Positions 3,207 to 24,177 of a stretch of 64,000 nucleotides of DNA are shown piece by piece. The number at the start of each line of letters is the position of its first letter. Positions within the stretch are counted from its first letter, which is position 1. The position numbers and the translations under genes were made by a program. The notes beneath the pieces are model-generated. The model ran no database searches, was not told the origin of the DNA, and saw only the letters and a list, made by a program, of their open reading frames with translations. Where the stretch lies: positions 80,350-144,349 of the forward strand of contig JAAZXB010000007.1 in assembly GCA_014240375.1 (NCBI GenBank), read 5' to 3'. The DNA is from Planctomycetota bacterium. Its GTDB lineage: Bacteria; Planctomycetota; UBA8108; UBA1146.

Positions 3207-3634
3207 TGTTGATGGGATGGCTGTGGGCTGCATTCGGTGGAGCGGTGGGAGCATCCCTGCGCTGGGGTGTTTACCAGTGGGTCCAGCGCACCGGAATCTC
3301 TCCTGTCGAAACCGTCGCCCCTGCTAGCATCTCGCCAACAGCAACGGGAACCCTGCTGGTCAACTGGATCGGATCGTTGCTGATCGGCCTGATCGTCGGA
3401 TTCCTCGAGGCGAAGTCGATCGATGATGAACGGCTGCGGATCTTTCTGGTGGTGGGGGTACTGGGAGGATTCACGACGATGAGCGCACTGGGCCTGGAGG
3501 GGTGGCAGTTGCTCCGGGAGGGACACACCCTCAAGACGCTCCTCCTGGTGTTCCTTCAGTGTGTCGGTTGTGTGCTGCTGGCCGGTGGCGGCTGGACTCT
3601 GGCCAGGAACCTGGCGGGAAGTACCGCCAGCTGA
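3203..3634 (+). CDS. crcB: Fluoride ion channel CrcB/FluC
   Basis: 143 aa with four TM segments. Motifs GGAVGASLRW, TLLVNWIGSLLIG and GVLGGFTTMSA (GGxTTxS) are characteristic of CrcB. Overlaps the stop of the upstream gene. Confidence 0.9.
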   Translation: MMLMGWLWAAFGGAVGASLRWGVYQWVQRTGISPVETVAPASISPTATGTLLVNWIGSLLIGLIVGFLEAKSIDDERLRIFLVVGVLGGFTTMSALGLEGWQLLREGHTLKTLLLVFLQCVGCVLLAGGGWTLARNLAGSTAS

Positions 3635-3850: not shown

Positions 3851-4821
3851 CTGCGCCTTTCCGGGGGGCCAGCCAAACTCAATCCTTCAATCAAAGCGTC
3901 CATCACCAGCGCATCCGTTGCATGGATGGGTTGATTGCTGTCGAGATCCCAGACCGCAACCACTTCCCCGGATGCATCGAGGATCGGGCGCGCCATTCCC
4001 GCCACAGTACTCAATCCGCTCTCCCCATCACACGAGATGTAGCCGGGCCACCTTGTCACATCTGCGGCAACCAGGATGCTTCCCTGTTGAACTGCATCGA
4101 AACATAACCCGCTCCTCCCCTCTTCCTGCTCTTGGATGGGAGAACAGACCGGTGGGCCGTCAGCCGGTCCCAGTTCCAATCGCCTCCTGGGGATCTGCCC
4201 CCGCAGCAGGTAAATTCCGTTCCAGTCCCAACCAAACGGCTTCATCTCCTCTGCGATGATCTTCGGCAGCGATTCCCAGTGAGTACCTTCATCGAGAGCC
4301 GACACCGAGCGACGGGCCAGATCGTGATAGGCCTGCCGTCGCTGCTGCTGAAGATCTCCAGGTAGCTGCTCGATGATCAGTTCGATGCGCTCGAGTAGAT
4401 CGAGCACTCGCAGGTGATGCTGGATTCGCACCCGTATCGAGTCTCGCGCCACCCGAAACACCGCGAGCTGATGCTGATCCACAGCGGATCCATCAAGGTG
4501 CTGTGCGGGATCGGGAAAGGGCCAGTGGAGTGTACGGGTTGCAGCCGAAAACAGCGGGCATTGCTGCCTGGCAGCGTCACAGACCGTCACTGCCAGGTCA
4601 AACTTCTCGCCGGACATCTCTTCGATCGACTGACTCCTGAGAGAATCGATGGAGATCCCGTCTTCCTCGAGAACCGCCAATGCTGCCGGATGCGGAGAGC
4701 CCGTTGGATCGGTTCCAGCAGATGCACAGCGCCATCGCCCCCCGGTCTCGTCTCTCCAGATCGCCTCTGCGAGGATCGAGCGGCAAGAGTTGCCCGTACA
4801 TAAAATGACGACCGATGGCAT
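3847..4821 (-). CDS. Fusion protein: thioredoxin-type arsenate reductase/LMW-PTP domain plus free methionine-(R)-sulfoxide reductase-like GAF domain
   Basis: The N-terminus has the P-loop CTGNSCRS and the downstream Cys pair VCDAARQQCP (ArsC Trx-coupled pattern). The C-terminus has WNGIYLL...LELGP..G..VCSPI....GRSGLC..AV......V.DV..WPGYISCDGES..., keeping the three fRMsr cysteines. Confidence 0.75.
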   Translation of the reverse strand: MPSVVILCTGNSCRSILAEAIWRDETGGRWRCASAGTDPTGSPHPAALAVLEEDGISIDSLRSQSIEEMSGEKFDLAVTVCDAARQQCPLFSAATRTLHWPFPDPAQHLDGSAVDQHQLAVFRVARDSIRVRIQHHLRVLDLLERIELIIEQLPGDLQQQRRQAYHDLARRSVSALDEGTHWESLPKIIAEEMKPFGWDWNGIYLLRGQIPRRRLELGPADGPPVCSPIQEQEEGRSGLCFDAVQQGSILVAADVTRWPGYISCDGESGLSTVAGMARPILDASGEVVAVWDLDSNQPIHATDALVMDALIEGLSLAGPPERRR

Positions 4822-4902
4822 CGATTCCTCCTAGGCAGCTGAGAAGTGCAGGATAGCAGCGAGACGTGTGGAGTGTACCCTGATCATTGAAAGGAGGAGA
4901 TC

Positions 4903-5460
4903 ATGGTGGAACTTTCTAGCATCTGGTTGCCGATTCTTCTCTCCGCGGTATTCGTTTTCATTGCCAGCTCAATCCTTCACATGATGATCCCGATTCACTG
5001 CAAGGACTATGCTGCTCTGCCAGGGGAGGATGAAATCCTGGAAACGATGGGAAAACATGAAATCACCCCGGGGCTGTACCGGTTTCCCTTCTGTGCATCG
5101 ATGAAGGAGATGGGAAACCCAGACCACATGGAAAAAGTGAATCGTGGCCCCAACGGGATGTTGACGATCACTCCCGACGAACCGATGGCGCTGGGGAAAT
5201 ACCTGTTCCTGTGGTTTGTCTTCTCCTTGCTGATCACGCTATTTGTCGGCTATCTCTCATCGATGGCACTGGCCGCTGATGCCACTTCCAGGGAGGTGTT
5301 CAGATTCGCCGGAACTGCCGCCACTCTCGGCTTTGCCGTACCGGTCCTGTGCGATTCGATCTGGAAAGCGGTGCCCTGGCCTGTGACCCTTCGCTTCTTC
5401 TTCGATGGAGCGGTCTACAGCCTCGTCACCGGGGCGACCTTTGCCTGGTTCTGGGCCTGA
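4903..5460 (+). CDS. Conserved-looking integral membrane protein, function unknown
   Basis: 185 aa. N-terminal TM segment, soluble loop, then three or more TM segments. Strong AAGGAGGA RBS. No recognisable catalytic motif. Confidence 0.6.
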   Translation: MVELSSIWLPILLSAVFVFIASSILHMMIPIHCKDYAALPGEDEILETMGKHEITPGLYRFPFCASMKEMGNPDHMEKVNRGPNGMLTITPDEPMALGKYLFLWFVFSLLITLFVGYLSSMALAADATSREVFRFAGTAATLGFAVPVLCDSIWKAVPWPVTLRFFFDGAVYSLVTGATFAWFWA

Positions 5461-7058: not shown

Positions 7059-10000
7059 GGGGCAACCTGCATCGGGGAAGGGTGCCGCAGGTGGTTCTCC
7101 TGCATTGAACAGATAGAGCAGCAGGTAGATCGCATCCGAGATGTCGATCGATCCGTCAGCGTTGGTATCCCCTGCCTCTTCCGGGTTCGGTTGGGCTCCC
7201 GTGGCGAACAGGTAATCGAGAAGGAAGATCGTATCCGAGATGTCGAGGGTGCCGGAACCGTTGGTGTCTCCTCGGATGAATGGATCGGTGCATGGACTCG
7301 GAGGCAGCATCCACTCGAGGATCCGTGCCAGCAGCGGAGTACGATCTGCAGCCACGACAGACGAGAAGGGGAATGCCAGCACCGCCGCCTTGTGCCCCTG
7401 ATCGACTGTCACCACTGCGGCCCCGCCGCCTTGAAGTGTCCCGGTACCCGATGCCGGGTCGTAGGAGAACGCCCTCTGTGCCGGTGGTAGCGGAGTCATT
7501 TCCGATTGGTAGGCACCGCTCGACAGCTGCAGGTCGAGGCCATCCCCGAGCGGGTTTCCCGCCTCTCCCAGTAGTCCTGGCAGACCCATATCCCACTGTT
7601 CGTGCTGGAGGAACAGGTAGTTGCTGAACAGTGCAGTGGTGTCGAGATATGCGGTGGCATACGCTCCCGAGAGCACCAGGTTTCCGCCGCCCTGGAGATA
7701 TTCCATCAACAGTGCCTGGCGCGCCGGACCCAGCTGGTCGGGGTAGCCGCTGTGGAAGTAACCGACCGGCCATATCACGACGCCATCGGTATATTCAGCG
7801 AGCAACGCGGTGGTCAATGGACCATCGACAAACGGGTCCCATGCCTGGTAGCCGATACCGAGACCATCGAGAACATCCAGGTAAGTGACTTGATACCCGG
7901 TATTTCCAGCATCGAAGTAGCCATTGATCACCAGGATGTCGATGGTGGACTCGACCGTCACTTCCAGCGATTGCAACGATTCATTGTCGGAAGCATCGAT
8001 CGCAGTGATCACGTAGTGGAGTTGGCCCGCTCCCGCTTCACTGTCGACAAAGACATTTTCCTGCAGTGGAAGCGGATTCACCAGAGAGTAAGGCCCGCCA
8101 GCAACCACAGATCGATGGACGAAATAGCCACTCAAGTCGGGCTCCGGGTTTGCATTCCAGGAGAGGGTCACGCTTCCATTGGCCGAGACTGCAACGACTC
8201 CGGTCGGAGGCGAGGGCGCGACCACGTCTGCTGCCGTTGCAGAGTAGGGTCCCTCGAATACGATGGTCGATGTCGCCAGATCTGCCGAGACGGTGGTCTC
8301 GCCGAACCACGCCACTGCTGAGGTCATGTTGTCGGAGAGCCCGGTGAGTTGCCCCAGTTGACCATCGAGCACCAGGTCCGTCGATTCCCGGTAATCCTCG
8401 ATCGGTTGACCGCCGAGCGGGGTCGTCTCGCTGTACTGGTACTGAAAACGATTTTCCCAGACATGGAATGCCCCGCCGCCAGGCAGGACCGACTGAAGCT
8501 GCCCCAACACCTGGCCGGCGTTGTCATTTGCCAGCGTGGTCGGTGTCGCAACGGTCGGTACATCTTCGGCAAAAAGCCCGGTGCCCTGTTGGAGCAGAGC
8601 AATCTGAGCGTCGATGAAACCGTCGTAGTCCACTTGCAGTTGCGGATCATTCGCCATCGAAGCATACAATGCATCGAGGACCACGATGTCATTTCCGAGC
8701 ACCGCCTCGAAAAGGGCCGCCAGTAGATCGGGGCGCAGTTCTTCGAGAAACTCGAAGTACACGCCGGCGTACCTGTAGAAGGTAAACGATCCATAGGTCG
8801 CACTGGTGATGTCGGCCACCGTCAGTCGGGTGCTGTCGGTTGAAATCCGATCGAGCAGAATTCCCCGCGGCAATACCCCGTTGATTCGAGTCGCGCCGAC
8901 CAGGTATTCCGCCAACCCCTCATTGTACCAGACCATGCGGTTTCCTTCGTACAAGGAGCCGGACTCGCCGAAACTCCCGGTGATCAGGTAGCGACTGTCG
9001 AGGAAGTGCGTGTACTCATGACGGAGCAGTTCTTCCAGCGTGTAGATGCTCTGTGCTGGAGTTCTGTCGTAGGTGAAGAGAGTCCCCCACCCCTCGATGA
9101 AGATGCCGCCGTTATTGGTCGAGAGACCGTACAAGAACGGCTGATAGTTCGAGTAATCCTGTGGACTGCCATAGATCACCAGCGTCAGAACTTCATTGGT
9201 GTCGCCGGGAACGGCCTCGAGGGCACCACTCTTCCGGTAGAACTGACTCTCGACCTCCTGGATGGCGTCATAGAGTTGGTTCGCCACATCGAGGTCGATC
9301 GCCGTCAGGAATTTCAGCCGTCCCTGGTCGAACAGATACTCATTGGGTAGTGCGATCGCCATCACTTCGCTACGAATCTGGACAAGATCGAGCAAGCCAC
9401 CGCCATACAACTGACCGGCAAACTGCATATCCAGGTCGATCACCGCCCTCAGCCACGGTCCGGAGTACGGAATGTGGAGATTGTAGGCCTGCGTGAGGAT
9501 GTCGTGAGCCGCATCCCGCGTCGTCTGTTCGAGAAATGCCATCCGGTTCATCACCCACAGGGCATTGAGCACGACATACTCATTATCATCGGTGTAAGTA
9601 GTGTCGAGGGCGATCACCGCAACCGCGGCTACCAGAGCAGGTGACACCGCGGAATACCACGGACTGTTGACTCCACCAGAGTTATTTTCATTGCCGATCT
9701 GCCGGGCCAGTGTGAAGAGACAGCGATACGCCATCAGACGTTCCTGGTATTCGTCTTCATGGGCCGGATCGGATGAGTATCGATCGAGCACCGCCTCGAT
9801 CTGAGGGATCAACGATACGCTGGCATTGGTACTGTCGATGCTCACCAGCCATTGCGACAGAAGAGACAGCGGTGGATCCACCGTGATCAACTCAGGCTGC
9901 TGTCCAACGGTCACCATCGCCTGCACCGCCGCTGCAAACGTCGGATCGTCGTACGACACGCTCGCCTGATAGAACTGGTGATAAAAAGCGATCTGGTAAA

Positions 10001-19993: not shown

Positions 19994-20995
19994 ATGAGGT
20001 CATCGATGAGTCGATCTTGGTCCATCTTATGCACGATGATCCTGCTCCTTTGCGGTTGTCTTGGCCCTGATCACAGGAGCGAAAATCATCGAGACCGCTG
20101 GGCGATCGCCATCCACGGTGGAGCGGGCGCCCTTTCCAGAGACGCACCTGAAGAAGCGCAACGTGCCTATCGTGAGTCGTTGCAATCGGCACTGACCATC
20201 GGCGCCGGAATCCTTCAGGGTGGCGGGACCGGACTCGACGCTGTCGAACAGGTGATTCGCTTCCTCGAAGATGATCCCCTGTTCAATTCTGGCCTCGGAG
20301 CCGTCTTTAACTCGGAGGGAAAACATGAACTGGATGCATCCATCATGGATGGTTCCGATCTCTCCTGTGGTGCCGTCGCTGGGGTGCGAACCGTACGCCA
20401 CCCCATCACGCTGGCCAGAAAAGTGATGACAGAAACTCGCCATGTACTGTTTGCCGGGGAAGGTGCCGAGACCTTTGCCAGCGAGTGCGGAGTCGAACTG
20501 GTCAAGAACTCCTTCTTCTCAACCGATCGACGGCGAGAGCAGTGGATCCAGAAGACCCAGCAGAAGAAGGGCACCGTCGGGGTGGCGGTGCTCGATCAGC
20601 ACGGACACCTGGCGGCGGGCACGTCGACTGGTGGCATGACCGACAAGCGCTGGGGTCGAGTCGGCGATTCCCCCATCGTCGGAGCCGGCACCTACGCCGA
20701 TGATCGCGCCTGCGCCGTTTCCTGCACCGGAACCGGTGAGGAGTACATCCGTCACGCGGTCGCTCATTCCGTCGCGGCGCGCATGATGCTAGCGGGTCAG
20801 GATCTTCAAACCGCCTGCGATGCGATGATCCACCAGGTGCTTCAACCCGACGATGGCGGCCTCATCGCCGTCGATGCCGCCGGCAATATCGCGTTTTCCT
20901 ACAGCACAGGAGGGATGTACCGCGCCGCCGCCGATTCAAGCGGCCGCTTCGAGATCGGCATCCATGACGAGATGATCACGGTGCCTGGCTCCTAG
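19994..20995 (+). CDS. iaaA: Isoaspartyl peptidase/L-asparaginase (Ntn hydrolase), predicted lipoprotein
   Basis: HGGAG..., autoprocessing and active-site region GTVGVAVLDQHGHLAAGTSTGGMTDKRWGRVGDSPIVGAGTYAD. Start moved to ATG 19994, giving MRSSMSRSWSILCTMILLLCGC (signal peptide plus lipobox). Confidence 0.88.
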   Translation: MRSSMSRSWSILCTMILLLCGCLGPDHRSENHRDRWAIAIHGGAGALSRDAPEEAQRAYRESLQSALTIGAGILQGGGTGLDAVEQVIRFLEDDPLFNSGLGAVFNSEGKHELDASIMDGSDLSCGAVAGVRTVRHPITLARKVMTETRHVLFAGEGAETFASECGVELVKNSFFSTDRRREQWIQKTQQKKGTVGVAVLDQHGHLAAGTSTGGMTDKRWGRVGDSPIVGAGTYADDRACAVSCTGTGEEYIRHAVAHSVAARMMLAGQDLQTACDAMIHQVLQPDDGGLIAVDAAGNIAFSYSTGGMYRAAADSSGRFEIGIHDEMITVPGS

Positions 20996-21086
20996 TTTTC
21001 CGCAGCGGTTCTGGATTGGTCGTCAGGATTCCATCGATCTCCTCTTGCGATGAAGTGAACTCTAAAATCGGCTGTCGTCTCCTTGG
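20992..21086 (-). pseudogene. Orphan 3'-terminal fragment of a cyanophycinase-like gene (displaced old C-terminus)
   Basis: Minus-strand translation KETTADFRVHFIARGDRWNPDDQSRTAAEN-stop. The first 10 codons are identical in DNA to the intact gene tail (KETTADFRVHLIGSGERWKTTPLTSSVRDH-stop) and both tails are 30 codons long. No upstream coding continuation. Confidence 0.6.
21055..21086. repeat. 32-bp perfect direct repeat, copy 1 (gtgaactctaaaatcggctgtcgtctccttgg)
   Basis: Identical to 22539-22570. The flanking bases differ on both sides. Confidence 0.95.
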
Positions 21087-21279
21087 TTGAGAGCTGGTGC
21101 CCTCATATGAGGGATTATTATTGATGCAGGTGCTTGGACCATTGACGGCTTGGAGTCCCTGCGCATGCTTCTATAGTAGGGTGTTGCCGTCGGAGTCGCG
21201 GGGCCGATTCGCTGCCACCGCCCGACCAAGAATCGCACGGACTCGAAACGTCGACTCCGTCAGATATGGAGGCCGCAGC

Positions 21280-22407
21280 ATGCGACGCCTTCACGTAGGG
21301 ATACATCCTATGAAGCATCCCAGCTTGGGCTTCTTGATACTTCTCTTCGCGACCTCCTGCGCCGGCCCGCCCGTCGCAGAGCTCTCACACCCTGAGTCCA
21401 GCCAACTCTTCGACTTGCTGGACACCAGTCACGATGGCTCGCTTTCCCCCTTCGAAGCGCTCGACGCCCTGCTTGTGATCTCGAAGGAGGGTGCCTTGAC
21501 CCGTGAGGCCCTCGGGGCTTTTTTGAGCGAGTATGCAGAAGAGGAGTTTGCTGACCGCAGAGAGTTCTTCGAGATGGGGGACTCGGACCGCGACGGGAAA
21601 CTGGTGCTGAACGAGCTCCCCAGTGGATTTGCCTCCATGATGTCGAGTCTGGATACCGACGGTGATGGCGCCATCACCTGGAGCGAGTTCAGGCTGGTCA
21701 ATATCGAGTCCTCCGTGATGATGGCGAAGGAGGAAGGAGCGGAACTCTATGCCGAGCTCGTCGAGGAGATCGGGGAGCCGGTGCACCTGGAAGGAGCTCC
21801 CGTTGACCTTGTCGAGGAACTTCGGGAGTTCGATGTCGACGGAGACAGGACCATCACTCAAGAAGAGATCGAGCAGGTGATCCGTAAGGAGCTCGCTGGG
21901 ACGACCTTCGAGGTCACAGGCGAGCTCGCGATCATGCAAGGAGTGATCGGTGCAACTACTCCTTCGAGTGTGCTTGAGCTCGCTTTCATGAACCCTGAGG
22001 TTCGGACCATTGTCCTCACCAATATGCCAGGTTCGATGGACGACGTGGCCAACATGCGGGCCGGACGATACATCCGTCAGTTTGGCCTGAACACGCACGT
22101 ACCGGCGGATAGCGAAGTGGCCTCTGGCGCAACCGACCTGTTTCTAGCCGGCAGGCATCGCTCCTGTGAGCCGGGCGCACGCTTCGGCATCCACTCTTGG
22201 GGTGGAGGTCCTGTGGTAGCCACGGACCTGCCAAGAGATCATGAAGATCACCTCCTCTACCTGGACTACTACGAGGAGATGGGCATCCCTGCGGAGTTCT
22301 ACTGGCGAACCCTCTCGGCCGCCCCAGCTGAGGGCATCCACTGGATGACGGAGGAGGAGCTCGAGCGCTTTGGTTTCTTCACGGACGGGAGACCTGACCT
22401 GAAGTAA
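21280..22407 (+). CDS. Lipoprotein with four EF-hand Ca-binding loops and a C-terminal ClpP/COG3904-like periplasmic domain
   Basis: MRRLHVGIHPMKHPSLGFLILLFATSC signal peptide and lipobox with a GGAGG RBS. EF loops DTSHDGSLSPFE, DSDRDGKLVLNE, DTDGDGAITWSE and DVDGDRTITQEE. The C-terminal block is IVLTNMPGSMDDVANMRAGRYIRQFGLNTHV...SGATDLFLAGRHR. Confidence 0.7.
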   Translation: MRRLHVGIHPMKHPSLGFLILLFATSCAGPPVAELSHPESSQLFDLLDTSHDGSLSPFEALDALLVISKEGALTREALGAFLSEYAEEEFADRREFFEMGDSDRDGKLVLNELPSGFASMMSSLDTDGDGAITWSEFRLVNIESSVMMAKEEGAELYAELVEEIGEPVHLEGAPVDLVEELREFDVDGDRTITQEEIEQVIRKELAGTTFEVTGELAIMQGVIGATTPSSVLELAFMNPEVRTIVLTNMPGSMDDVANMRAGRYIRQFGLNTHVPADSEVASGATDLFLAGRHRSCEPGARFGIHSWGGGPVVATDLPRDHEDHLLYLDYYEEMGIPAEFYWRTLSAAPAEGIHWMTEEELERFGFFTDGRPDLK

Positions 22408-22475
22408 GGCTCGGAGCGGAGTCGGAGGTTGCCTCAGAGTTCACATGCGAGGCTTGTTGGAGCTTGATCCCGTCA

Positions 22476-23309
22476 TTAGTGGTCTCGAACAGAGGACGTA
22501 AGCGGAGTCGTTTTCCAGCGTTCTCCGCTACCGATCAGGTGAACTCTAAAATCGGCTGTCGTCTCCTTGGCGGATGATTCCGTCTTTGGCTTGCGACCAT
22601 CGATCACCACTACCGGCCCCCGACCGATCACTTGCCAGGAACCATCGGGATCGACGATGACTGCAGTCTGTTCATCGATGCCGACTCCGATCTGATCTGG
22701 ATGATCGGCGACGGCGGTGAAGAGGCGCGCCCAGCGACGTCTGGCGAGGAAATGCTGATCGACGATGACGCCGGGCCACAGCCCCAGACCCTCGATAAGT
22801 TCCGTGGTTGATTTGAGCAACGCCTCCAGTTCTGCCTCGCCGGTGATCATGTGGCGAGACATCACCGCAGCACCGGCGCTGGTGCCGGATAGGATGGTGC
22901 CCTGAGCGTGGCACTTTCTCACCACATCGATGAGGTTTCGTTGGCGCAGTGCATCCATCAGGCGCGACTGCGATCCACCGCCGAGCCAGATCAGATCCGC
23001 ACTCTCGATGGCGCTGCGCGCTGCGGCCGCTTCTTCGGGAATCACCGTGACCCGTGTCGCTCCCGATTGCTTCCACGCCTCGGCAGTGCGTGCGCCGGCG
23101 TTCTCCCTGCTGGAAGCCCACCCGATGATGAGAATGTTGGCATCCTTGCCACCCGCCAGTTCGAGAGCTCGGGGGCGAAGATCCAAAGGAAGAGATCCAC
23201 CTCCCGCCACGATCAAAGCCCCCGCCTTCGAGGGCGCAGGGGGGTCGAGGCGGTCGAGTTCCGGTGCCGCCAGCAGCACCATCCACAGGGTCAGGGTTGT
23301 CGAGATCAT
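22476..23309 (-). CDS. Cyanophycinase-like peptidase S51, secreted
   Basis: ALIVAGGGS, LIWLGGGSQSRL, nucleophile elbow LSGTSAGAAVMS and VIVDQHFLARRRWARL match the cyanophycinase/S51 pattern. Start at ATG 23309 with a GAGGAGG RBS and a hydrophobic signal-like N-terminus. The last 21 codons lie inside the 32-bp-repeat-bounded insert. Confidence 0.8.
   Translation of the reverse strand: MISTTLTLWMVLLAAPELDRLDPPAPSKAGALIVAGGGSLPLDLRPRALELAGGKDANILIIGWASSRENAGARTAEAWKQSGATRVTVIPEEAAAARSAIESADLIWLGGGSQSRLMDALRQRNLIDVVRKCHAQGTILSGTSAGAAVMSRHMITGEAELEALLKSTTELIEGLGLWPGVIVDQHFLARRRWARLFTAVADHPDQIGVGIDEQTAVIVDPDGSWQVIGRGPVVVIDGRKPKTESSAKETTADFRVHLIGSGERWKTTPLTSSVRDH
22539..22570. repeat. 32-bp perfect direct repeat, copy 2 (inside the cyanophycinase-like CDS)
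   Basis: Identical to 21055-21086. Encodes KETTADFRVH on the minus strand. Confidence 0.95.
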
Positions 23310-23397
23310 CCGGGCCTCCTCGCTGTCAGTCTCTCCTGTTGACCGCACCGTGTCAGCAGTGGATCGTCTAGATCAACAACCTTGTGGGAGGATCGAG

Positions 23398-24177
23398 ATG
23401 AGCCATCGACAGAGCATCTCACTGATGTCTATATTGCTGACACTGTTCTCCTGCCAGGGCCCACCCCCTCGCACGATCGTTGCCGAACCCAGCCTGGAAG
23501 ATCGCGCTGCTTCCGCGGGCTGGCACGGCGGTCGCCCGTGGATGGACCAGCACCTCGACGGAGTGAAGATCGCAGCACAGGGGAATCTGGATCTACTGCT
23601 GGTCGGCGACTCCATCACGCAATCCTGGGGGGGCGAAGGGCGGCGCGTGGGAGTGACGGCCGCTGGTGTCTTCGAGAGCTTCTTTGGCCAGTTGCGGGTG
23701 GGCAACCTGGGCATCTCTGGCGACCGAACGCAGCATCTGTTGTGGCGCATCCAGAATGGCACCCTCGATGGTGCCGATCCTGCTGTCATCGTCATCCTGA
23801 TCGGCACCAACAACATCACGCATGATGCGCCGGCAGAGATCGCCATCGGCATCGAGGCAGTGGTGAAGGCAGCGAGAAACAAGGCTCCCGATGCGCTGAT
23901 CCTGCTGCATCCGATCCTTCCCCGTGGCAAGACCGCTGCCGATCAAGGGCGGCAAGAGTGCGCCGAGGTCAACGCTGCCATCGGCCATCTCGACCAGCTG
24001 CAAGCGGTCGAGATCCTCGATCTGACCGATGTGTTCCTGGCCGCCGACCAGCAGCTGCACACGCACCTCTATCGTCCCGATGCACTGCACCTGTCTCCGG
24101 CCGGCTACGAGGCATGGGCACGAGCGCTGGCACCTCGGTTGAGACTGGCCGGGTTGGCGGTCGCCAAGCAGCCATGA
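23398..24177 (+). CDS. SGNH/GDSL-family hydrolase, lipoprotein
   Basis: MSHRQSISLMSILLTLFSC lipobox with a GGGAGGA RBS. SGNH blocks LLVGDSITQSWG, GISGDRT, ILIGTNN and a C-terminal DALHLS. The track ORF start (22930) is antisense to the neighbouring gene and was rejected. Confidence 0.8.
   Translation: MSHRQSISLMSILLTLFSCQGPPPRTIVAEPSLEDRAASAGWHGGRPWMDQHLDGVKIAAQGNLDLLLVGDSITQSWGGEGRRVGVTAAGVFESFFGQLRVGNLGISGDRTQHLLWRIQNGTLDGADPAVIVILIGTNNITHDAPAEIAIGIEAVVKAARNKAPDALILLHPILPRGKTAADQGRQECAEVNAAIGHLDQLQAVEILDLTDVFLAADQQLHTHLYRPDALHLSPAGYEAWARALAPRLRLAGLAVAKQP

Follow-up and report, generated by a model that had tools for sequence, protein, structure and literature searches.

Introduction

In Streptococcus thermophilus, cis-mobilizable elements (CIMEs) occupy the 3' end of fda, and such elements accrete in tandem at attachment (att) sites. 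CIMEs are elements that keep attL and attR and have lost their integration genes (PMC5704250). Foreign DNA can also enter a chromosome by homology-facilitated illegitimate recombination (HFIR) or by Campbell-type insertion-duplication (PMC3240628), and merodiploids have been made by transformation (PMC3784515). We analyzed a locus that recalls these systems, in which a single-gene insert, bracketed by a perfect 32-nt direct repeat, lies at the 3' end of a cyanophycinase (peptidase S51) gene of a Planctomycetota bacterium. The locus lies in a 64,000-nt stretch (C98:80350-144349, hereafter the window) of a 3.39-Mb metagenome-assembled genome (MAG) of 120 contigs, called G000 below. Our analysis shows that the repeat pair is a real and unique fossil insertion scar, which this genome inherited second-hand.

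Like CIMEs, the insert is a small integrase-less segment between direct repeats, one of them falling within the tail of a protein-coding gene; element DNA has taken over the end of that gene, and the old end lies displaced at the opposite border. Unlike CIMEs, it has no related integrase-bearing element at its site, goes back to one historical insertion, and spread by flanking homology and not by excision and integration; an att function of the 32-mer is putative. With HFIR and Campbell-type events it would share one homologous exchange in a common gene, one illegitimate joint (with 2-nt microhomology), the placing of foreign DNA next to the anchor, and a short duplication, whereas classical HFIR mostly deletes recipient DNA and does not duplicate it. 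Islands in tRNA genes, recognized by an identity block from the anticodon stem to the tRNA 3' end, are the other home of the same cargo, in two distant Planctomycetota MAGs (L054 and L053); in contrast, the window has no tRNA or tRNA-derived sequence and the target is a protein-coding gene. The locus also behaves as in the exchange of accessory genes via flanking core genes, with a block more similar than its flanks, variable endpoints and a patchy distribution among close relatives. Unlike in the usual case, however, the block drags along a dead gene fragment of the original recipient, which makes the repeat conspicuous.

The repeat pair and its locus

The 32-mer GTGAACTCTAAAATCGGCTGTCGTCTCCTTGG forms a perfect direct repeat with 1452 bp between its two copies (Table 1). 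Even when up to 6 substitutions were allowed, the full 120-contig assembly held just these two copies, each 15-mer of the repeat being found exactly twice; in the window no third match was present at up to 3 mismatches, with 0 expected in shuffles. Extended leftward, the pair becomes a 58-nt imperfect repeat (21029-21086 versus 22513-22570, 88% identity, family D1 of the repeat search), made of 26 nt with 7 mismatches followed by the perfect 32-mer, and to the right the two copies share no sequence. The locus reads leucyl-tRNA synthetase (LeuRS, minus strand), isoaspartyl peptidase (plus), a 92-nt dead cyanophycinase end (minus), an EF-hand lipoprotein gene (plus; the cargo), the live cyanophycinase (minus) and a GDSL-like lipoprotein gene. 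Below we call the 20 codons that follow the 32-mer in the dead end tail A, and those that follow it in the live gene tail B.

Our repeat search found no terminal inverted repeats at the insert, and the list of open reading frames (ORFs) together with Pfam gave neither a recombinase nor a transposase in 20992-22570. Read directly, the 32-mer has no dyad symmetry, and Rfam returned no RNA family at the leader of the cargo gene or at the repeat at E <= 1. A transposon or insertion sequence would show terminal inverted repeats, encode a transposase and duplicate a short stretch of its target (2-15 bp). Such an insertion is out, as the first two are missing here and the duplication measures 32-58 nt. 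A dispersed repeat family is out as well: the genome has only the two copies, and the search of the order gave none elsewhere.

Empty and occupied sites in relatives

The gene order LeuRS-peptidase-cyanophycinase-GDSL is kept in two genera of the family. Peptidase and cyanophycinase genes are directly convergent, leaving the site empty, in G001, G002, G003, G005, G008, G012, G015, G018 (two copies) and G024, and the cyanophycinase tails at these empty sites are intact and highly variable. Occupied sites were found in G000, G006, G007 and G020, the last from another genus, and in the metagenome contigs L094-L096 and L099. The four genomes agree in their dead end, in the left junction (CCTTGG/TTGAGAGC, the slash marking the joint) and in the cargo; the spacer and tail B are the same in G000, G006 and G007, and the G020 contig stops inside the cargo gene. 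Later drift is limited to the loss of one base from copy 1 in G006 and to one substitution each in copy 2 of G007 and copy 1 of G020. Since junctions and remnant are identical in the occupied genomes and metagenome contigs, the insertion was a single historical event.

Repeated site-specific integration left no sign, remnant type and junctions being uniform in all occupied genomes. The occupied genomes have empty-site sisters (G008 and G005 for G000 and G006; G001 for G007), and independent integrations would be expected to displace host-specific tails; instead, tail A is present in all four occupied genomes, whereas the tails of the sisters differ. Neither the 34 genomes of the order nor viral contigs nor the metagenome matches gave an extra copy of the 32-mer, and no other cargo was seen at the site, a metagenome search returning 7 loci, all of known types. 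The assembly contains no empty-site bubble contig. A phage or viral carrier is out, as neither the 22-mer core nor a relative of the cargo occurs in viral contigs.

G024 carries a single 32-mer in an uninterrupted cyanophycinase gene beside the peptidase gene, and nine other empty sites carry divergent alleles. The sequence of the 32-mer depends on the allele: G024 has it unchanged, G018a differs from it at 6 positions, and it cannot be recognised in G003, G008 and others. The two copies of the occupied loci are therefore related by recombination and not by sequence conservation. Tail A resembles the functional tails of G024 and G018a, and its remnant, which has no start codon upstream, is also found in G007 (93% amino acid identity), in G020 (87%) and, frameshifted by a 1-nt deletion, in G006. 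Its stop (20992-20994) overlaps that of the peptidase gene (20993-20995) in a CTAG.

Spread of the block by homologous recombination

Nucleotide identity between G000 and G007 is 77.5% in LeuRS and 76.2% in the peptidase gene, rises to 92.8% over the block 20996-22870, and falls to 62.4% in the S51 5' part and the GDSL gene. Between G000 and G020 the series LeuRS, peptidase, block reads 77.5%, 80.1% and 87.6%, and G000 and G006 are 99.2% identical over 20464-22650 versus 66.6% beyond 22700. Comparison of G007 with its sister G001 (LeuRS 94.9%) places the import from ~125 nt before the peptidase stop to ~365 nt into S51; for G000 and its sister G008 (LeuRS 96.9%) it runs from ~50 nt before that stop to ~120 nt into S51. 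Because block identity exceeds flank identity and the endpoints within both flanking genes vary among G000, G006 and G007, the composite of dead end, cargo and new end spreads between lineages by homologous recombination. The peptidase gene, whose synteny with LeuRS is kept in relatives, is the left homology arm.

The live cyanophycinase gene of G000 is a mosaic, 100% identical to G024 and G006 over 22513-22650 and, according to identity profiles, G008/G003-like from ~22630 on. Its 5' part and the GDSL gene are 92% identical to those of G008/G003, sisters whose own tail is FVGKGQVWKPGSTSAEDPNDERRR, without a 32-mer. Since an end native to G000 would be of that type, tail A cannot have come from G000's own gene; dead end, cargo and new end entered G000 as one piece via crossovers in the two flanking genes. 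On contig C82 (1.9 kb) the bin also has another cyanophycinase-GDSL allele, which is G006-like (96.5% identical to G006).

These results bear on a first-pass annotation of the window made from sequence alone. Its sequence statements are all correct: 32-bp repeats at 21055-21086 and 22539-22570 bracket one gene, copy 2 encodes KETTADFRVH in an S51 ORF (22476-23309, minus strand) that ends in LIGSGERWKTTPLTSSVRDH, and copy 1 runs on into FIARGDRWNPDDQSRTAAEN on the minus strand. The absence of a recombinase gene and the restriction of the 32-mer to two copies genome-wide agree with it, and the tail-to-tail order of peptidase and cyanophycinase that it had proposed as ancestral is seen in the empty sites of relatives. 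Where it had the insertion take place in the lineage of this genome, the comparison with the sisters contradicts it, as the block was imported whole.

The cargo module and its other homes

The segment 21160-22424 is 90-93% identical at the nucleotide level to L053, L054 and L080, other Planctomycetota MAGs (L080 overlapping the last 165 nt only), and the L054 match also covers 21085-21160, so that homology to donor-type sequence is bounded by 21085/21087 and 22424. The LeuRS proteins of these three MAGs are 52-55% identical to that of G000, and the two values together therefore indicate recent transfer between distant lineages. The insert is composite, and the mobile module found elsewhere is 21087-22424 only. 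The stretch 22425-22512 is present in occupied loci only. Its first ~22 nt match L054 5131-5152, upstream of the left arm of that element, at 19 of 22 positions (p ~0.002 for a 150-nt target with shuffles; not significant genome-wide), which hints at an insert circularly permuted relative to an L054-type donor element. The remainder, 22442-22512, gave no significant match to the donor element (p ~0.4). A larger two-gene duplication, in which the spacer 22425-22475 would be a second peptidase 3' end, was rejected, the similarity being not significant (p 0.09-1.0 and 0.57-0.74). Relative to L054, the insert is without a 495-bp piece holding a small divergent membrane ORF. We also observed that the 10-mer AGCGGAGTCG occurs both at 22412-22421, in the truncated cargo terminator, and at 22502-22511, in the distal part of tail B, 90 nt apart; the pair might reflect microhomology used when the ends were first joined, or might be due to chance.

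The cargo is a habitual passenger of island-type regions. In L054 it stands beside a ZnuABC-type transporter and an M24 peptidase gene, with tRNA-Ser(TGA) directly downstream and a 52-55-nt copy of that tRNA (nt 28-79) 2.1 kb upstream (repeats at 5007-5058 and 7108-7193). L053 has the cargo and a sulfatase gene between two tRNA fragments (3315-3367 and 7154-7215), L120 has a tRNA fragment ~550 nt upstream of the cargo gene, and no integrase lies within these intervals of L054, L053 and L120. In L055, whose cargo protein is 75% identical, a DUF2959 gene and the cargo gene lie between the copies of a 40-nt direct repeat (4788-4827 and 7193-7232), which agree at 22 of their first 23 nt. This repeat lies in an ORF fragment reading RLRW(A/T)EL..R, which has no Pfam match and is reminiscent of the C-termini of IS91-family transposases. 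The bracketed segments have in common only the gene itself and sometimes its leader, and no ends; the G000 insert contains no tRNA-derived sequence. In the distant genomes the cyanophycinase gene is not beside the cargo, S51 homologues (34-43% identity) being on other contigs.

As an observation in its own right, the distant tRNA-Ser(TGA) locus carries tandem tRNA-fragment repeats, identical from tRNA nt 28, that enclose a sulfatase gene, a small membrane ORF and an EF-hand gene; these look like decayed or accreted island segments.

On several points the first-pass annotation needs qualification. It held that a 1452-bp segment carrying one gene had been inserted and had given the live gene a new tail; tail B, present in occupied loci only, is in keeping with this, but the segment is not a single mobile unit. 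Its att-like interpretation earns some credit from the tRNA-Ser repeats around the cargo in distant Planctomycetota, and the search that it had suggested, for homologues flanked by similar repeats, gave tRNA-Ser-derived repeats in L053 and L054 and the 40-nt repeat in L055; a single event, no recombinase, and no other 32-mer or cargo speak against it. The comparison of GC content that it had proposed revealed no contrast, in GC or in composition generally, between insert and flanks.

Origin of the first insertion

The locus is probably the product of one old insertion, with the two 32-mers as its fossil scar, that later spread by homologous recombination and needed no dedicated recombinase. 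The single origin, the empty sites, the transfer as a block with variable endpoints and the foreign origin of the cargo are shown; the chemistry of the first event we infer as follows. A ~1.3-kb module (21087-22424, comprising a hairpin left arm, the leader and the EF-hand/ClpP-fold gene) was acquired horizontally and would have been joined into the 3' end of a G024-type cyanophycinase allele in some member of the family. The incoming DNA would have brought a working gene end (tail B, the 26 nt and a 32-mer), and the recipient's own end (tail A and its 32-mer, 92 nt) would have been stranded dead beside the peptidase gene. This most likely involved one exchange within a short stretch identical in two cyanophycinase alleles, plus one illegitimate joint at the left junction with 2-nt (GG) microhomology, by a Campbell-type event or by HFIR, possibly from a circular intermediate. 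Afterwards the composite was copied into other lineages, G000 included, with the peptidase gene as left and the cyanophycinase gene as right arm of homology. At the left joint, GG microhomology is all that is shared with donor-type sequence. The differences in the 26-nt part are the same in all occupied genomes and are mostly at third-codon positions or conservative, and the frame of the remnant is intact in three of the four; being codon-aware, with the remnant frame mostly intact, they fit two natural alleles and not a fresh duplicate that has since decayed. Each tail measures exactly 20 codons. The proximal 26 nt of tail B match G024, and its distal 37 nt (TTAGTGGTCTCGAACAGAGGACG) are unique to occupied loci.

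Several points weigh against this account. Integration by a tyrosine recombinase classically leaves a perfect repeat that duplicates a target 3' end, and an insert that brings the replacement end. The same cargo has tRNA-Ser-derived repeats on its two sides in L054 and L053, and a different repeat, of 40 nt, in L055. The earlier state that the account predicts, with the cargo cleanly beside a tail-B cyanophycinase, was found in no genome or contig, and 22442-22512 has no significant donor match. MAGs under-recover islands, which makes the absence of an integrase-bearing partner weak evidence. Moreover, contig C82 with its second allele indicates that two strains co-occur in the sample, so that the join at ~22610-22650 could be chimeric; the structure of the scar would be unaffected.

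A somewhat unlikely alternative is a CIME-like non-autonomous element: a small circle, its attP mimicking the end of the cyanophycinase gene, that was integrated by a tyrosine or serine recombinase whose gene lies elsewhere. On this view the att core would be the 32-mer and the integrase-bearing partner would be lost or unassembled, and the block would also have spread by homologous recombination. As such an event would predict, the 32-nt repeat is perfect and identity drops sharply to either side of it, the replacement end is as long as the displaced old one (20 codons), and G024 has a single 32-mer at its empty site; the hint of circular permutation of an L054-type element fits too; in L054 the cargo lies between a partial (nt 28-79) and a full tRNA-Ser(TGA), in L053 between tRNA fragments, with the same topology as here. 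However, a single integration is visible, with the same remnant and junctions everywhere. The 34 genomes of the order and the viral contigs have no further 32-mers, the site has no other cargo, and neither a recombinase in the locus nor an integrase-bearing sister element using the site was found among those searched. Neither end of the insert has a tRNA-type att sequence, the bracketed segments in three contexts have no common ends, and the 32-mer lacks dyad symmetry. Quite unlikely, in our view, is the more general proposal of an integrase-less element mobilised in trans that repeatedly enters gene 3' ends (cyanophycinase; tRNA-Ser in L053, L054 and L120; the L055 site), bracketed by repeats of the target end, with the 32-mer as a working att core.

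A template switch or staggered break, by which a circular copy of the cargo was inserted and 58 nt of the target (21029-21086 = 22513-22570) were duplicated, is very unlikely. The last 12 codons of tail B would be fortuitous read-through into DNA of the element, and the 7 mismatches in the 26-nt part would have arisen later by decay or by patchy conversion with other alleles. The 58-nt repeat itself is what such an event would leave, the spacer start resembles L054 5131-5152, tail B distal and spacer match no natural allele, and short-patch mosaicism is rampant in the cyanophycinase gene. This explanation is less likely because all 7 mismatches avoid the 32-mer and fall in the 26-nt part, for which uniform decay gives (26/58)^7 ~0.004; in addition, they are shared by all occupied genomes and look allelic and codon-aware. 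Tail B, at exactly 20 codons, ends in DH as the natural tails of G012 and G015 do, and the rest of the spacer is not significantly donor-like. That the EF-hand gene was ancestral here and deleted in the empty-site genomes, or that the duplication is an assembly artefact, can be considered refuted. The GC content of the insert equals that of its flanks and the sample has two strains, as either would allow, but every occupied genome has a dead cyanophycinase end beside the peptidase gene, whereas empty sites have diverse intact tails; block identity is far above that of the flanks, the cargo is 90-93% identical to distant lineages, and the structure is common to at least 7 independent assemblies, which disposes of an artefact. 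One old insertion, spread later by flanking homology, remains the reading that we favor.

Cargo protein, leader and flanking genes

The protein encoded by the cargo gene was modelled by AlphaFold2 with a pLDDT of 78.8, its C-terminal half with high confidence. Foldseek aligned that half with ClpP structures (E 3e-5, TMt 0.54-0.58, ~22% identity), and S272 in VASGATDLFLAG and H295 in GIHSWG are invariant. The C-terminal domain has no Pfam or PDB sequence match; the model supports, at the fold level, a ClpP/crotonase-like domain, which may be a serine peptidase, and to that extent the earlier label of an EF-hand/ClpP-like lipoprotein.

A perfect 14-bp palindrome, CCCTCATATGAGGG (21100-21113), followed by the T-rich run ATTATTATT, scores as terminator-like. 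The hairpin is kept in the donor-type element L054 (~5225), and the palindrome therefore came with the cargo module and now stands just downstream of the peptidase gene; a terminator is more likely than a recombinase-binding site. Farther on, a ~35-nt conserved element, GGAGYCGCGGGGCC-N7-8-GCCACCGCCCGAC, precedes the cargo gene. It is found upstream of homologues with 36-51% amino acid identity (L057, L104, L100-L103), once each in 7 of 401 Planctomycetota genomes and never in the reversed control. The 138-nt leader that holds it (21173-21310) is 99% identical between G000 and L053, versus 93% for the whole match including the coding sequence. Foldable as a hairpin with a variable loop and without an Rfam match, the element may be a new cis-regulatory RNA or operator.

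With the NCBIfam beta-aspartyl-peptidase model, the left flanking gene scores 275 bits, under the cutoff of that model. We note that the peptidase and the exported cyanophycinase are convergent neighbours across two genera and that the third gene inserted between them is peptidase-like too (19994-23309); the adjacency could reflect a functional link or coincidence. A separate observation concerns the cyanophycinase 5' part and the GDSL gene, which are hypervariable (22630-24177 compared with G006, G005 and C82), at 62-67% nucleotide identity where LeuRS genes are 96% identical. Their alleles have been reshuffled patch by short patch, and two of them co-occur here (contig C82). The pattern looks like replacement of alleles, or diversifying selection acting on secreted enzymes.

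Table 1. Features of the insertion locus (window coordinates; a dot marks features without a strand)
Feature	Position	Strand	Evidence or remark
Isoaspartyl/beta-aspartyl peptidase gene (Asparaginase_2), lipoprotein-like signal	19994..20995	+	Pfam PF01112, E 1e-103
Dead cyanophycinase 3' end, tail A: 20 codons FIARGDRWNPDDQSRTAAEN + stop	20992..21054	-	Sequence and relatives
Extended repeat, left copy	21029..21086	.	58 nt, imperfect, 88% identity
Direct repeat copy 1	21055..21086	.	32 nt, within dead 3' end
Cargo left arm with terminator-like hairpin	21087..21160	+	87% identical to L054 5209-5287
Conserved leader element, 5' of cargo gene	21186..21226	+	Planctomycetota genome scan
Cargo gene: lipoprotein, calmodulin-like EF-hands (N-terminal half) and predicted ClpP/crotonase-fold domain (C-terminal half)	21310..22407	+	Pfam EF-hand, AlphaFold2, Foldseek
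Cargo module 3' flank	22408..22424	+	blastn to L053, L054, L080 stops at 22424, within donor terminator hairpin
51-nt spacer	22425..22475	.	Unique to occupied loci
Cyanophycinase (peptidase S51) gene, mosaic	22476..23309	-	TIGR02069 171.2 bits versus cutoff 126.6; Pfam PF03575
Replacement 3' end of live cyanophycinase, tail B: LIGSGERWKTTPLTSSVRDH + stop	22476..22538	-	Comparison of relatives
Direct repeat copy 2	22539..22570	.	32 nt, codes KETTADFRVH in live gene

Conclusions

The scar does not point to integrase-less elements of a new kind and reveals no new mechanism. A perfect att-like repeat can be second-hand, so that the genome carrying it need not have undergone the integration itself, which is a caution for the prediction of islands and att sites in MAGs. 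The locus documents recent gene flow (90-93% nucleotide identity) between Planctomycetota whose LeuRS proteins are only ~55% identical. It provides a natural example, set in marine Planctomycetota and within ordinary genome evolution, of an accessory gene that enters a conserved locus once and is then passed between genera by flanking homology, together with a dead fragment.

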